64,000 bases of DNA, taken from assembly GCA_951406725.2 (NCBI GenBank), contig OX597815.1, positions 199,268,001 through 199,332,000 of the forward strand. Direction: 5' to 3'. This document shows, piece by piece, positions 11,515 through 26,390 of the stretch (positions are counted from its first letter, which is position 1; each line of letters begins with the position of its first letter). A program made the translations under genes and the position numbers. The notes beneath the pieces were generated by a model, which saw nothing but the letters and a program-made list of their open reading frames with translations, was not told the origin of the DNA and made no database searches. The stretch is from Octopus vulgaris. Taxonomy: Eukaryota.

Positions 11515-11720
11515 GTGTGCATTTAAACACATAAGAGGTAGCCATGATAGGACTATCTGCACGCTAGAGAGGACAGTTGAATTCCGAACCATTATTAGAG
11601 ATAAAATATCGAAGAGAATGAAAAATAAAAACATTTACCATCTAACTCCTGGACCAATGGTTTCAGACATTTTTTAGCAAATAAAATAATTTGCTAGGCG
11701 AAGCCTTCTTCAGCAGGTAT
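11515..11720 (-). mobile_element. Short HHR-bearing repeat (family F), homologous to 26175-26390
   Basis: Shared blocks TGCATTTAAACACAT, CACGCTAGA, TGAAAAATAAAAAC.TTTACC, TTTTTAGCA...TTTGCTA.GCGAA. Confidence 0.75.
11648..11717 (-). ncRNA. Type-I hammerhead ribozyme, canonical core
   Basis: CCUG-CUGAAGA-AGGC...(UAGCAAAU/AUUUGCUA)...GUCU-GAAA-CCAUUG-GUC|CAGG; all three stems pair. Confidence 0.8.
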
Positions 11721-11856
11721 GTCTTTAAATGTACACTGTAATAATATACAGTCTATTGACTAAATTTTTAAACGCTAGTCCACTTGTAATGGAAATTTCT
11801 AATATTCCAGATTACCCTTTGATATTATTAATTATATATACATATACATATTCATA

Positions 11857-12252
11857 TCTTTACATATAAACGTGAGGTTGTGTGCTGTCTGTCTCCTACG
11901 ATTTAGATTCCTAACTACTCCCACATTTTGCGGGGCAGTTTAACCAAAACCGGGTATCTTATAGTCGTGATTCATATCGAGCCCTTCTGGGTATTAGCGC
12001 GCGTCTATGATGAGTCTACGATTTTTAAAAAAATTACCATCAATTTTTCCCATTTTTAATGCATTTTTGGCATATATAAGGGAAGTAACTCTCTAAAAAT
12101 TTATTAAATCTCAGAACGTAAAAAGCTACAGTAACACTCCCCCCCCCTTTGTTGTTAGCCATATTGAGATGGCTATTATACTTTACATCTCTAAAAATGC
12201 TTATATAGTTATTTCCCTTACAAACCCGAGCAACACCGGGCGATACTACTAG
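11857..12252 (+). mobile_element. Non-autonomous Helitron
   Basis: A|TC 5' end, subterminal hairpin CCCGAGCAACACCGGG, CTAG|T 3' end, no TSD. Confidence 0.85.
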
Positions 12253-14439
12253 TATATATATATATATATATATCGAACAGTGTAATCTTCTGTGTTATCG
12301 GAAACTATCCAAGAACTTGGAATTCCTATATATACATATGCAAACACTTGGCTCACAAGGCAACACTCATGCAAATGAAACCAAATATATCACTCATTAT
12401 TACCAACCGACGTTTTTATTGCATGAGTTGCTATTGTTGTTGTTGGTGGTGGTGGTGTGTTTATTGTTTATCCGCAGGTTTGCCCTATCTGACGGAGGCT
12501 TGTGATTAAAGGGGTTATTTTTACTGTCCTGCTCTCTCTCCTTCTAATTCTGGGCTTTGCATATCTAGAACTGTATTTACCAATATGTTATTCATCCATT
12601 CTGCGAACAACAACAATACTTGGGGTGCGGTTTTTAACGAGATTTACACTGATATTTGTAAACAAGTCAAACAACCATTGTAGAAACCACGTCGTTAGTT
12701 CGAATAACAAACAGTGATAAAATGGATGGAAGAAGGTCAATTTAATCAACAATAACCATCCATTAATTGTATAGCAATGCAATAACGTGAGAAATCAATA
12801 CATGTATCATAACACCTATCTTTAAATATACTAATTATCGGTTGATAACACACAACTCACCGCAGAAAACAAGCACGTACACACTGCACATACAGGCAGC
12901 TGACGATTCACACTCACATACAATAGCATATATGCACACGCATCCACGCAGTTTCTGATCGCGACCTCAATTGGAATACTTTAGTTCTTCAGTGTCTTCA
13001 GTTATCCGCTAAATCTTTGCAAGTATTGAAACATTTATCTTACATATCGGCAGGTGTTACAGACAAACCGAATAGTCAGAAAGAGTCACGTGAAAGTATA
13101 AGATGGCTGACAGACAATATAGTATTCTGCTGTTCATTACAATAAATGCGTGCTTCTACACAAACACATACACACACAGACACTCATATATATATATATG
13201 TGTGTGTGTGTATACATACATATATATACATATATATTTACATATATATATATACATACACACAAACATATTTGTATATATGTGCACATATGTAAGTGTG
13301 TCTATATGTGTGTGTGTTTTGTGTGTGTACATATATATATATAGATATTTTATACCTACACATAAGTATAAGTTCATACAGATATAAATATATCTATATG
13401 TATACAGGTATGCATATATTTATAGACATAGCTATACATACATTCATATATATATATATATATATATATATATATATATATATATATATGTATATATATA
13501 CATATATTTACTCACACACATATATATACACATATAGATACATGCATATAAATATAGATGTACATATATGGACACACATATATATATATATATAGAGAGA
13601 GAGAGAGAGTCATATATATATATATATATGTATTACATATATATATATATATATATAGAGAGAGAGAGAGAGAGAGAGAGACAGACAGACAGAGAGAGTG
13701 CGTCTTATAGACACACATGTATATATATACGTGTATGTATGTCTCTATATACTTATAGATAAACACACGTATATATATACATTTACACATACAAACGCAC
13801 ATATATACATATACATACATATATCGATTAGATGAGAAACCTCTGTTGTTAAAATGATAATTACTTCTTTAATTTGTTTATATATATCTTATCAACACAT
13901 TGTGATTTTTCATTTTCAACCACGTATTCCCAAGACACAGTTATCTCCAAGTTTCTGTCTCTTCCTCGCCTGGCTTTACCCTCCAATTATTATTTTTTTT
14001 TTCTGTTTACTCTTGTTTACGTCAGTTTCAACTTTTATGTTTCCTACCGCCAGGTAATATATACGCATATGTATGAATATATGCGCACGCACGCAAGCAG
14101 ACACGTAGACACGTAGACACGCATACGTGCTCAGCCCTTATCACGCACGCACAAGACGCGGTATGATCTATAAGGATTTAGCGCAGTCAGGGGCAACCTG
14201 CAGTCCGTGGGAATTTCTGAGAGGCACATGCAAAGATAAAAAACATTGTTTCCAGGCAACTGATATCCACACACATATACACACGCGCGCACACGTATAC
14301 TCACAATCTTACACATACACACACATAGACAGACAGACAGACGGACGTATGGGTTGATGGATAGACAGATATACAACCAGACAGGTTTGTAGAGAAAAAG
14401 ATAGATATATAGATAGATAAAAAGACAGACAGACAGATA

Positions 14440-14852
14440 AAAAGACAGATTGAAAGAAAGATAGATAGATAGATAAATAGATAGATAGATAGATAGATAG
14501 ATAGATTGATAGATAGATAGATAGATAGATAGATAGATAGATAGATAGATAGATAGATAGATAGATAGATAGATAGATAGACAGACAGCTAAACAGATAT
14601 ATATATATATATATATATAGAGAGAGAGAGAGAGAGAGATAGAGAGATAGATAGATAGATAGATAGATAGATAGATAGATGCATACATGCATACATACAT
14701 ACATACATACATACATACATACATACATACATACATACATACATACATACATACATAGATACATTCATACATACATACATACATACATACATACATACAT
14801 ACATACATACATACATACATACATACATACATACATACATACATACATACAT
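14440..14852. repeat. (GATA)n-(TA)n-(GA)n-(CATA)n compound microsatellite
   Basis: Direct reading. Confidence 0.9.
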
Positions 14853-23437: not shown

Positions 23438-24798
23438 ATCAAGGTATGATATCATATATATGAAACAATTGGTATAATTATAAACAGGGCAAATTTTAGC
23501 TATTTCTCCACAGCATACATATTATTTATCGTATATTTTGTTTTTATAACTTAGTGTCGTTACTCTGGGTGTTCCTTCATCTTAGTAAAGTGGAAAGCAG
23601 AATATTCTTTCGTCCTAGTAATGTGGATTCATTGTTTGTGAAGATCGCTTACCTTGTTACTGGTTGATTTTCTTCATAGATAATCTTATAAAATTTAGAT
23701 AATGCTTAGATACTGGCGTTTCGTTTTGGGGAGATTAGTAGCACACACACACACACACGCACTCACACACACACACACACACACACACACACACACACAC
23801 ACACACACACACACACACACACACACACACACATACAAACACACACACATATATATTTATATGCTCGAAGTGAGGAGTAGTTAGACTATTGATGAAGGGT
23901 TGTTCTTTATGTTATTTGTCCTGTTTTCAATTTGTTTCTCTCGTTGTTTGCGTATTGAAGTCATTTATTTTCGTATTTCATGTTGTTTACTGTTCGTCAC
24001 GTCCTATATATGCATATATGTATGTTGATCCCGCCAATACCGGAATAGCAAGTGATATATATATATATATATATATATATATATATATATATATATATAT
24101 ATATATATATATATATATATATATATATATATATATGCATATGCATATATATATATATATATATATATATATATATATATATATATATATATATATACAT
24201 ACATATCTATCTATCTCTCTCTCTCTCTCTCTCTATATATATATATATATATATATATATATATATATATATATATATATATATGTGTGTGTGTGTGCGC
24301 GTGTGTATGAATACATATGTATATCTTTATACATATATATATATATATATATTTATATATATATACATATATACATATATATATATATATATATATATAT
24401 ATGCATATATATATGTATATATATATATATATACATATATATCGTTTGCTATTCCTTTATTGGTGGGATCAACAAAAATGTTAAAAGAGTATTCCATCCA
24501 CTCAGAGATAAACAGCTTTTAATATATAAAAGAAAATATCTAAATACAAACCACAATTCGTTTCATAGTGTGAAAACACAATAAACTAGCAAGATTATAT
24601 ATGAAAGTTTGCGCTCCTAAGCATTTTTAAAACCTAAATATACAACAGCCCCAGCCATGCTGCATATTTCATTCTGGAATATTGGTTGAAAACACAAGAC
24701 ACGATATATATTGCGTTTATTGTGTTTTCGCAGCATGTAATTAATAATAGCTGATATTTAAATATTGTGTATATTAAATGATACATACACGCCTATGT

Positions 24799-25437
24799 GT
24801 GAAGGTGCGTGGCTTAGTGGTTAAGGCATTCGGCTCTTGATTGTAAGGTCGTGAGTTCAATTCCCGGCGACGCGTTTTGTCCTTGAGCAAGACACTTTAT
24901 TTCACGTTTTTCCAGTCCAGTCAGCTGGCAAAAATGAGTTGTACCTGTATTTCAAAGGGCCGGTCTTGTCACACTCTGTGTCACGCTGAATCTCCCTGAG
25001 AACTACGTTAAGGGTACACGTGTCTGTGGATTGCTCAGTCACTTGCACGTTTATTTCACGAGCAGGCTGTTCCGTTGATCGTAGCAGCTGGGACCCTCGT
25101 CGTCGTAACCGACGGAGTCTTAAGAAGAAGTGGTTAAGGCATTCGGCTCTTGATTGTAAGTTCGTGAGTTCAATTCCCGGCGACGCGTTTTGTCCTTGAG
25201 CAAGACACTTTATTTCACGTTTTTCCAGTCCAGTCAGCTGGCAAAAATGAGTTGTACCTGTATTTTAAAGGGCCGGTCTTGTCACACTCTGTGTCACGCT
25301 GAATCTCCCTGAGAACTACGTTAAGGGTACACGTGTCTGTGGATTGCTCAGTCACTTGCACGTTTATTTCACGAGCAGGCTGTTCCGTTGATCGTAGCAG
25401 CTGGGACCCTCGTCGTCGTAACCGACGGAATGCTCCC
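24799..25437 (+). mobile_element. Tandem dimer of SINE family C
   Basis: Units 24799-25120 and 25129-25437; one TSD ACACGCMTATGT (24787-24798, 25441-25452). Confidence 0.9.
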
Positions 25438-26174
25438 AAAACACGCATATGTATATCCGCCACCACCTAGTCCAATAAATTACTTTTACAACTTCGAGCC
25501 ACACACACACACAACACTCATTATTTAACAGCCAAATATCAACTTTTCCCTCTTATATAGGAAGAACCTATCTCGCTTTCTATATTAATTTACACATAAC
25601 TGTACATGTGTGTGCACGCGTATGTGTGTGTATGAATCTGTATCTATATTGCCATTTGTGTATGTATAAGTACATCCATGGATGTATGTGTGTTGACCTA
25701 CGAGTAGCCATATATGTGTGCGAAGAGGCGCAGCAAGGTGAATATGCAGATGCATGGATATACACATCACCTTCCTAGGTTTTATCTAGTCCCATTGGAC
25801 CACCCCTCTTTTTGCTATCTGATATATTCTATAAGCCACGTTACTTTACTTTTGATGTTTACCTGAATGATTTAGTCATTTTCACTCACACACACACACA
25901 CACACACACACACACATATATATATATATATATATATATATATATATATATATATATATATATATATATATATATATATACTTATACATATACATTACAT
26001 ATATATGTATATATATACAGAGAGAGAGAGAGATAGATAGATAGATAGATAGATAGATAGATAGATAGATAGATAGATAGATAGATAGATAGATAGATAG
26101 ATAGATATAGATATATGTATATATATATATATATATATATATATATATATATATATATATATATATATAATAGT

Positions 26175-26390
26175 ATGCATTTAAACACATGAGAAACTAC
26201 CTTTTAACAGGTGATTTTACACGCTAGAAGAAGCAGTCAAAAACGATCAAAACCACGTTTAAAGGGCAATTTTGGAAGGGAGTGAAAAATAAAAACTTTT
26301 ACCTTGTTATTTTTTTACGGTCATACCTAGGTTTCAATTTTTTTTAGCACATAAACTATTTTGCTATGCGAATTCTCATCAGTAACCGCG
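26175..26390 (-). mobile_element. HHR-bearing repeat family F, second copy
   Basis: Homology to 11515-11720. Confidence 0.75.
26318..26388 (-). ncRNA. Type-I hammerhead ribozyme, canonical core
   Basis: CGGUUA-CUGAUGA-G-AAUU...AAUU-GAAA-CCUAG-GUA|UGACCG; 6-bp stem I, palindromic stem III ACCUAGGU. Confidence 0.8.

Follow-up and report, generated by a model that had tools for sequence, protein, structure and literature searches.

Dead copies of long-stem-II hammerhead retrozymes in the genome of Octopus vulgaris and their likely copying by a Penelope-type enzyme

Two hammerhead copies in a microsatellite-rich window

The window analysed here, a stretch of 64,000 nt at positions 199268001-199332000 of contig OX597815.1 in the Octopus vulgaris assembly (2.8 Gb, 227 contigs), is rich in microsatellites and holds many repeats. 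Among these are two copies, both with their ribozyme on the minus strand, of a repeat family that carries a type I hammerhead with a long stem II. It is very probable that they are dead, 5'-truncated non-coding retrozymes with monomers of 460-475 nt, whose hammerhead likely cleaves itself as a dimer and which were likely copied into (TA)n by the enzyme of a Neptune-type Penelope-like element (PLE). Their features, in window positions, are the following.

11504..11719, minus: copy 1 arm 1, a 5'-truncated subfamily A fragment (monomer -68 to about +146 from the cut site) with its 3' end at site 1
11718..11845, plus: copy 1 arm 2, an inverted fragment (monomer +118 to about +252) with its 3' end at site 2
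11652..11713, minus: copy 1 type I hammerhead, CUGAAGA at 11713-11707, stem II at 11706-11665 and GAAA at 11664-11661
11661-11653, minus: copy 1 stem III, ACCAUUGGU, with C17 at 11652 and the predicted cut 11652/11651
11648..11717, minus: copy 1 stem Ia, CCUG at 11717-11714 pairing with CAGG at 11651-11648
11670..11702, minus: copy 1 stem II internal loop, UUCGCC at 11702-11697 facing AAAAA at 11674-11670
11696-11675, minus: copy 1 stem II extension, UAGCAAAU/AUUUGCUA
26160..26472, minus: copy 2, a single-arm, 5'-truncated subfamily B fragment that ends in (TA)n
26324..26382, minus: copy 2 type I hammerhead, CUGAUGA at 26382-26376, stem II at 26375-26336, then GAAA
within the copy 2 hammerhead, minus: palindromic stem III, ACCUAGGU, with A17 at 26324 and the predicted cut 26324/26323
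26305..26398, minus: copy 2 full stem I, from a constrained fold and the family alignment
26398-26394 with 26309-26305, minus: copy 2 helix Ib, UGUUA with UAACA
26392-26390, minus: copy 2 stem I loop GGC, followed by helix Ia, GCGGUUA at 26389-26383 with UGACCGU at 26323-26317
26367..26392, minus: copy 2 predicted loop-loop contact, GGC at 26392-26390 with the stem II bulge CGCA at 26370-26367

An earlier note on this DNA had taken the two for divergent copies of one family with intact cores, and both points hold. Indeed, the copies align with 67% identity across 235 nt, and each has CUGANGA (at 11713 and 26382, minus), GAAA and a cleavage triplet (GUC and GUA), so that the type I core C3 U4 G5 A6 N7 G8 A9 / G12 A13 A14 A15.1 / U16.1 H17 is present in both; the cuts that the note placed at 11652/11651 and 26324/26323 agree with these cores and remain predictions. 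The pattern CTGANGA-N36-56-GAAACC-N2-3-GGTH has two matches in the window, exactly these copies, against 0.01 expected from 100 shuffles. In the genome searches, where the best-scoring candidates of each search rather than every match were examined, the copy 1 query gave 1940 first-look candidates and the copy 2 query 1557, and the 40 scored for each were 90-95% and 86-90% identical to their query, respectively. Copies 1 and 2 are members of two separate large subfamilies, A and B, with 90% identity of copy 1 to a natural partial tandem at locus L024 and 88% identity of copy 2 to another at L036.

The stems were described only in part by the earlier note. Its letters for stem I, CCUG/CAGG and CGGUUA/UGACCG, are right, but the stem is longer than it stated, consisting of a helix Ia of 6-7 positions, an internal loop and a helix Ib of about 6 bp; in copy 1 the 5' truncation at 11719 removed the upstream loop GGU and the 5' strand of helix Ib. 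The letters of the stem II base are also as claimed, but the register AAUU/AAUU given for copy 2 is slipped with respect to the family form GAAUU/AAUYY. Likewise, the extension UAGCA...UGCUA is found in both copies, but the bulge read as UUCGC has the family form (U)CGCC, which is CGCA in copy 2.

The two copies also differ in their ends. In copy 1, arm 2 meets arm 1 head-to-head and reaches a TA-rich stretch at its far end; each arm contains sequence absent from the other, and therefore neither can have been copied from the other. The 3' end of copy 2 lies about 150-160 nt past the cut site, where the boundary is blurred by a microsatellite, a (TA)n array at 25916-26169. Both copies are dead fragments that show no sign of a host function.

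Monomers, genome-wide scale and covariation

Upstream of the ribozyme, copies run into sequence that is found downstream of it in other copies, and the unit is thus a tandem monomer. The tandem period is 458-476 nt in most self-matches (e.g. L012, L021, L024, L034, L036 and L049), with other periods of 431 nt in L212 and 546 nt in L131. Head-to-tail monomers that each carry a type I hammerhead occur at L131 (four cores 546 nt apart), L132 and L212. In particular, the L131 array, which lies between microsatellites, comprises about 3.9 units of 546 nt that are 99.9% identical, plus an inverted arm, and contains no open reading frame (ORF) over 71 aa. Subfamilies A and B are represented by partial tandems, and the window copies are sub-monomer fragments. 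Family D is very young, a 131-nt query matching 23 places at 100% on 12 contigs. Assembled contigs from three sequencing runs guessed to be RNA and from one of unknown kind cover parts of the D monomer, which is not counted as evidence of expression, as none of the runs listed is recorded as RNA. Monomers have a GC content of 30-39%, and the circular fold beats shuffles in three of four natural monomers (z of -3.6, -2.7 and -4.1). Being tandem, non-coding, low in GC and prone to fold as circles are the marks of a retrozyme of the kind without long terminal repeats (non-LTR).

Two further arrays were met. At L171:968-2752 there is a 594-nt tandem, with units 99.7% identical, that is related to family D over 33 nt and keeps the 3' half of a hammerhead core, a scan finding no CUGANGA in it; it is possibly a retrozyme array amplified without the full ribozyme. 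At G000:C1:33100402-33105388, a short-stem-II hammerhead family forms a tandem array of at least 10 units with a spacing of about 545 nt.

The scale of the family was assessed by pattern counts, with reversed patterns as controls. The exact combination of core, bulge and extension had 270 genome matches (control 0), a looser extension pattern 914 (control 4) and a pattern free of extension sequence 928 (control 10), the last exposing many more subfamilies. Admitting other stem III words raised the count to 20,525 against 786, so that long-stem-II patterns overall have about 21,400 matches against about 800 in controls; a short-stem-II pattern had 6,245 against 466, with one more anchor letter and thus not strictly comparable. 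Among the first 30 long matches, 24 can form 3 bp of stem I, 18 form 3 bp of the stem II base and 15 form both, with at least one chance overlap with another motif. For comparison, 235 Hammerhead_1 matches have been reported for the giant squid (PMC6962438). The hammerhead models of Rfam gave no match above the gathering cut-off in five loci, including the young L131 array, and no hammerhead family appeared among the 150 listed of 276 Rfam matches in the window. Hammerhead counts from Rfam or from short-helix descriptors may thus miss most motifs in such genomes.

Covariation was evaluated in two alignments hand-picked from 123 motifs, one of 43 rows chosen to cover the subfamilies, which provides the stem I numbers, and one of 33 rows used for the extension, stem II, stem III and the loop-loop contact; all rows were found with patterns fixing the core and most of stem III, so that invariance there is partly built in. 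In the 43 rows, three helices surround the core, with helix I open, and stem I is 87%, the stem II base 83% and stem III 98% paired. Double changes are seen at all seven pairs of stem Ia and at 3/4 pairs of the stem II base, G-U pairs are tolerated, and the double-change cells number 146, where shuffles give 49.8 and slid controls no more than 37. A tree of 35 rows, computed from flanking sequence that excludes the ribozyme, has 10 same-branch changes from one Watson-Crick pair to another on seven pairs, seven of them on internal branches, against 0.12 for each mismatched column pair; pairs I.4 and II.3 show none. The stem II extension is 97% paired, with 2/7 pairs doubly changed by exchanges of U-A and C-G (17/11 rows) and of C-G and U-A (23/6 rows) among the 33. 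Between the two window copies, however, the extension is identical in family terms, the distal part of copy 2 having private substitutions, and this pair of copies therefore gives no extension covariation.

Stem III behaves differently. The earlier note had read compensatory changes in all three stems, yet stem III has none: its A-U, C-G and C-G pairs are the same in both copies, which differ there in the loop only (AUU versus UA), and 0/3 pairs vary on both sides in the 43 rows. What is kept instead is self-complementarity, since 58 of 121 motifs (two of the 123 being left out as members of other families) have a perfect palindrome and 28 more have ACCAUUGGU with one central mismatch; a perfect palindrome is also present in 17/30 motifs of other families, and the computed energy of the self-duplex is -8.9 to -14.1 kcal/mol. 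The data thus support the proposed selection on RNA structure in the active lineages as regards stem I, stem II and the extension, whereas stem III has been kept as a palindrome, in keeping with the dimeric type of hammerhead known from animal motifs (PMC4209133). Among PLE hammerheads, families rich in compensatory changes inside single genomes have already been described (PMC4209133), so that the covariation, although real, was to be expected. All in all, these data show that subfamilies replaced stems I and II by compensatory changes and that single copies then decayed.

Possible loop-loop pairing, insertion ends and the candidate enzyme

The earlier note had suggested a tertiary-contact module in stem II, and a candidate partner for it was found in the stem I internal loop, although little covariation backs it. 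The 5' strand of this loop reads GGY in class 1, to which both window subfamilies belong; its two G are nearly invariant, whereas the adjoining helix Ia turns over completely. GCC is present in the stem II bulge, and GGY and GCC can form 3-5 bp. We cautiously favour a loop-loop contact between the two. Judged by sequence complementarity, the match peaks at the predicted window (8.2 versus 3.5-4.7 elsewhere upstream, not corrected for G+C), and class 1 loops reach 8.4 with their own bulge but 4.8 with class 2 bulges. In addition, GGC/GCC in subfamily G (L103) becomes CCG/CGG in D (L131) with equal spacing, and of 100 listed copies of subfamily F two have both a G-to-A and a C-to-U change, against three and two with one of them, a count made by eye that may reflect a single event. 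It is nevertheless quite conceivable that the complementarity is incidental, the loops being kept for non-canonical contacts or protein binding and the extension acting only as a stable cap. Indeed, class 1 triplets hardly vary, so that little covariation is seen; class 2 other than D offers only 2 bp (CG/CG), and its cross-class control is weak (own 6.3, swapped 6.0); the register also shifts by 1 nt among subfamilies, the third pair being formed in 16/33 rows in one fixed register. As for the window, copy 1 lost its GGY through truncation, and the change from CGCC to CGCA in copy 2 costs one pair of the predicted contact. Most stem II extensions of class 2, that of L131 among them, end in a GNRA-type tetraloop (GCAA, GUAA) that sits on a covarying helix.

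The ends of the insertions are informative on how the elements were copied. In family D, copies were chosen only on the segment downstream of the cut site, leaving out L280-L284 (the L131 array), with L286 a duplicate of L285. Of their 41 3' ends, 18 lie at +172..185, 21 at +280..292 and two elsewhere, the two sites being 105-110 nt apart, and 38/41 are beside a dinucleotide repeat, whereas the share among random positions of the window is 8%. In 15/17 two-arm inverted insertions each arm ends at a different one of the two sites, and none uses one site twice. Subfamily A has the same two-site pattern, at about +143..160 and +237..252 (+237..247 in first-unit matches), where +252 is the end of the reference, and subfamily G has sites at +146/+250; subfamily B is mapped only to +161, the end of its reference. 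The 5' ends of D are scattered and the arms read through the cut site, which argues for a circle or an uncut multimer as the template; a linear cleaved monomer was rejected in this role, with only 1/41 5' ends within 2 nt of the cut site. Since each arm holds sequence missing from the other in L270, L271, L292 and copy 1, the two cDNAs would have been primed separately, and fold-back copying of one arm from the other is excluded for these four, not for all insertions. Copy 1 is a two-arm inverted insertion of the same type. Two fixed internal 3' ends, one per arm, are the signature of the Penelope 'tail'. Experiments in vitro with a PLE protein have shown that it nicks AT-rich DNA on both strands and begins reverse transcription at two internal positions, and that the tail seen in genomes corresponds to the segment between these positions (PMC11167929). 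PLE insertions have been described as targeting (TA)n, as carrying a tail at just one of their ends and as including an inverted arm with 5' truncation (PMC8557442).

Potential partner enzymes are present in the same genome. Intact 781-aa ORFs with a reverse transcriptase (RT), a GIY-YIG domain and a CxxxxCxxC linker (Neptune-type) occur at many places, with an RT score just under the Pfam cut-off, and their elements end in (TA)n. This Neptune-like PLE is a candidate only. Its intact copies (L167-L170) have their own minimal hammerhead, with the variant core UUGAUAA (U3-A8), which lies about 800-890 nt after the ORF and about 75-90 nt before the (TA)n junction. A link by sequence of monomer A, B or D to this PLE or to the other GIY-YIG loci was considered and dropped, the comparison covering 30 GIY-YIG loci and the PLEs of 10 longer regions, with most PLE families of the genome lying outside it; a loose likeness by eye of the D site-2 end to a PLE 3' end is not counted as evidence. 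The window has no tblastn match to three PLE proteins, and no ORF with RT and GIY-YIG was found inside a retrozyme element. PLE coding fragments lie near the motif in 6/166 loci. At L199:1500-2700, a long-stem-II hammerhead fragment directly abuts a PLE body of the same strand that is 5'-truncated and C/T-rich, a junction that is either a nested insertion or a template switch.

The preferred reading, that of retrozymes copied by a PLE enzyme, may be put as a cycle. Monomers stand in head-to-tail partial or full tandems and encode neither RT nor endonuclease. Their multimeric transcripts would fold two hammerheads into a dimer via the palindromic stem III and cut at GUH, and by analogy with other animal retrozymes the cut RNAs would probably be ligated into circles. 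Pairing of the bulge GCC with GGY may hold stems I and II side by side, with the extension capping the internal loop. As the 3' ends lie at two fixed sites far from the cut site, beside microsatellites, and two-arm insertions use one each, a PLE protein may nick both (TA)n strands and prime one cDNA per site on circular or uncut multimeric RNA, and the two cDNAs may then be joined head-to-head.

A number of observations weigh against this reading. Regarding the ribozyme, position 10.1-11.1 is a standard pair in 21/43 rows and G-C in seven, with A.A and A.C common, so that neither the conserved G10.1-C11.1 nor a short helix II with a small loop is found, the helix II region being 36-56 nt long. 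The hammerhead is not the minimum-energy fold of either window copy (z -0.79 and +0.50), lying 4.5 (copy 1) and 1.6 (copy 2) kcal/mol above it, and only one of nine predicted retrozyme dimers was cleaved in vitro in the work of Li et al. (preprint 10.64898/2026.07.22.740005). Regarding the monomer, that of L212 folds no better than shuffles (z -0.69), and lengths of 431-546 nt exceed the 170-400 nt of PMC7229834 and fall inside the 51-972 nt range of the preprint. Regarding the enzyme, blastn of monomers A, B and D against the PLE set described above found no similarity beyond short matches of 25-33 nt, those of 33 nt being in another tandem repeat, L171, and the tail of about 105-110 nt is longer than the 30-40 bp described for PLEs.

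Among the alternatives, the ribozyme might be irrelevant to mobility, the long stem II and the loops being kept as a binding site for a PLE or host protein and cleavage being weak or protein-assisted. Mutants of an anole PLE hammerhead left insertion in vitro unaffected and cleavage needed protein (PMC11167929), both the 3' and the 5' ends lie away from the cut site, and the pair 10.1-11.1 is so often non-standard. We nonetheless hold this unlikely, as the core letters are invariant in both alignments (partly through the choice of rows) while stems I and II turn over with compensation around them, and as the stem III palindrome recurs across many unrelated families, which fits selection for dimer cleavage. 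Still less probable is that the elements are solo pseudo-LTRs (pLTRs) of an autonomous PLE not yet found, with the tandems as pLTR duplications. Their 5' truncation, inverted arm, tail and (TA)n target are all PLE features (PMC8557442), the searches examined only the best-scoring candidates, and the six loci with nearby PLE coding fragments could be cited in its favour; but of the four such neighbours inspected three are separate insertions (opposite strand or different junction), and in L199 the ORF fragment comes after the ribozyme and not before it. Moreover, what lies upstream of the ribozyme is the end of the previous monomer, with no ORF, the arrays reach about 3.9 pure monomers, and the intact 781-aa PLE has a minimal hammerhead variant of its own at its end. 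Finally, a DNA-level element, i.e. a satellite or a miniature inverted-repeat transposable element whose palindromes mimic a hammerhead by chance, is suggested by the resemblance of two-arm insertions to inverted repeats and by the repeats that fill the window, but is hardly credible given the lack of fixed terminal inverted repeats, the scattered 5' and fixed 3' ends, the 25- to 200-fold excess of the patterns over reversed controls, the acceptance of G-U pairs, which points to RNA, and the strand-specific core pattern with its covariation.

On the reading of PLE-copied retrozymes, the interest of the family lies in its size, in a long stem II with possible loop-loop pairing and in ends that tie retrozymes to PLE chemistry. 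PLEs have been proposed as drivers of retrozymes from their coexistence and from pLTR similarity, with the mechanism left open (PMC7229834; 2026 preprint); here, the mark of two start sites, known from the biochemistry of a PLE (PMC11167929), is found at the insertion ends themselves, one site per arm. One may tentatively go further and see a radiation of some 20,000 retrozymes of a new hammerhead architecture (35-60-nt stem II) missed by Rfam, with one branch using a GGC/GCC (CCG/CGG) contact between two internal loops. On this view, the insertions would record twin priming from two fixed sites of the RNA, on opposite strands of the target, and would be the first proof from a genome that animal retrozymes are mobilised by enzymes of PLEs. 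As one genome contains both a very young family and intact candidates for the enzyme, the link is directly testable, and, if the proposal is true, the active family, with identical copies on many chromosomes, and the intact Neptune-like ORFs would allow the whole cycle to be reconstituted in vitro. In turn, an internal-loop kiss with a free capping helix would suit ribozyme engineering as a natural scaffold.

Other repeats were recorded in the window. An unrelated repeat of about 210 nt is present at 11854-12064, where it adjoins the inverted arm of copy 1, and at 38589-38802 (86% alike), as well as in seven of the loci examined beyond the window. At 27280-27484 there is a third hammerhead element, which belongs to another family and consists of two inverted arms 95.6% alike, with cores at 27345 (minus) and 27419 (plus) and a short stem II. 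Two copies of a minimal hammerhead of yet another family, at 45830 and 41236 (both minus), have an extra A after A9 and a stem III cut to ACGU, a kind described in PLE pLTRs. A minisatellite with 56 copies of a 15-nt unit lies at 45924-46771.

Comparison with known systems

With PLE pLTRs (PMC4209133, PMC8557442, PMC11167929) the octopus elements share 5' truncation, partial tandems, an inverted 5'-truncated arm, a tail at one end only, two internal 3' ends and a dimer-type hammerhead, as well as (TA)n insertion sites like those described for Neptune and Naiad. They differ in having no RT or GIY-YIG ORF, no sequence match to the PLEs examined and a tail of about 105-110 nt rather than 30-40. 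The minimal hammerhead of PLEs has a reduced or absent helix III and a helix I of 4-5 bp with no defined loop, whereas the octopus motif has a 3-bp helix III and a two-part stem I. The hammerhead 'half core' of cephalopod Naiads (CUGANGA and GAAA separated by 35-50 nt in the 3' untranslated region) was considered as this motif and rejected; in the published 3' ends of Naiad_Ovul and Naiad_Obim, inspected by eye, CUGAUGA is preceded by GAAAC and a long stem II motif was not seen.

Many hammerheads are known to have a pseudoknot that joins stems I and II (Perreault et al. 2011, PMC3088659), where Watson-Crick pairing replaces the non-canonical loop-loop contacts, as it would here. In the octopus, however, the partners would be two internal loops, in a type I motif of an animal repeat, forming 3-5 bp only, whereas the pseudoknots of that work, one part of which omitted the highly repetitive type I motifs, mostly join loop I with a 3' tail.

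The closest likeness is with the non-LTR retrozymes of coral, mussel and axolotl (Cervera and de la Pena 2020, PMC7229834; Li et al. 2026, preprint 10.64898/2026.07.22.740005), which are likewise non-coding, low-GC monomers with one type I hammerhead each, are both tandem and dispersed, have a short palindromic helix III, and form many subfamilies that coexist with autonomous PLEs. The differences concern stem II, which spans 36-56 nt in the octopus (base, internal loop and capped extension) but is a 4-bp helix closed by a small loop in the others; the nucleotides usual in loops 1 and 2 of retrozymes, which are not apparent in the octopus motif; the monomer length of 431-546 nt; and the pairing of two fixed 3' ends with two-arm inversions, which the available text of PMC7229834 and of the preprint does not describe. 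Searches of open-access papers turned up no account of the long-stem-II design or of cephalopod retrozymes, the supplement of PMC7229834, outside the scope of this comparison, perhaps showing similar mollusc hammerheads. Collectively, animal retrozymes are already known, and what is new here is a structural variant of them with a long stem II.

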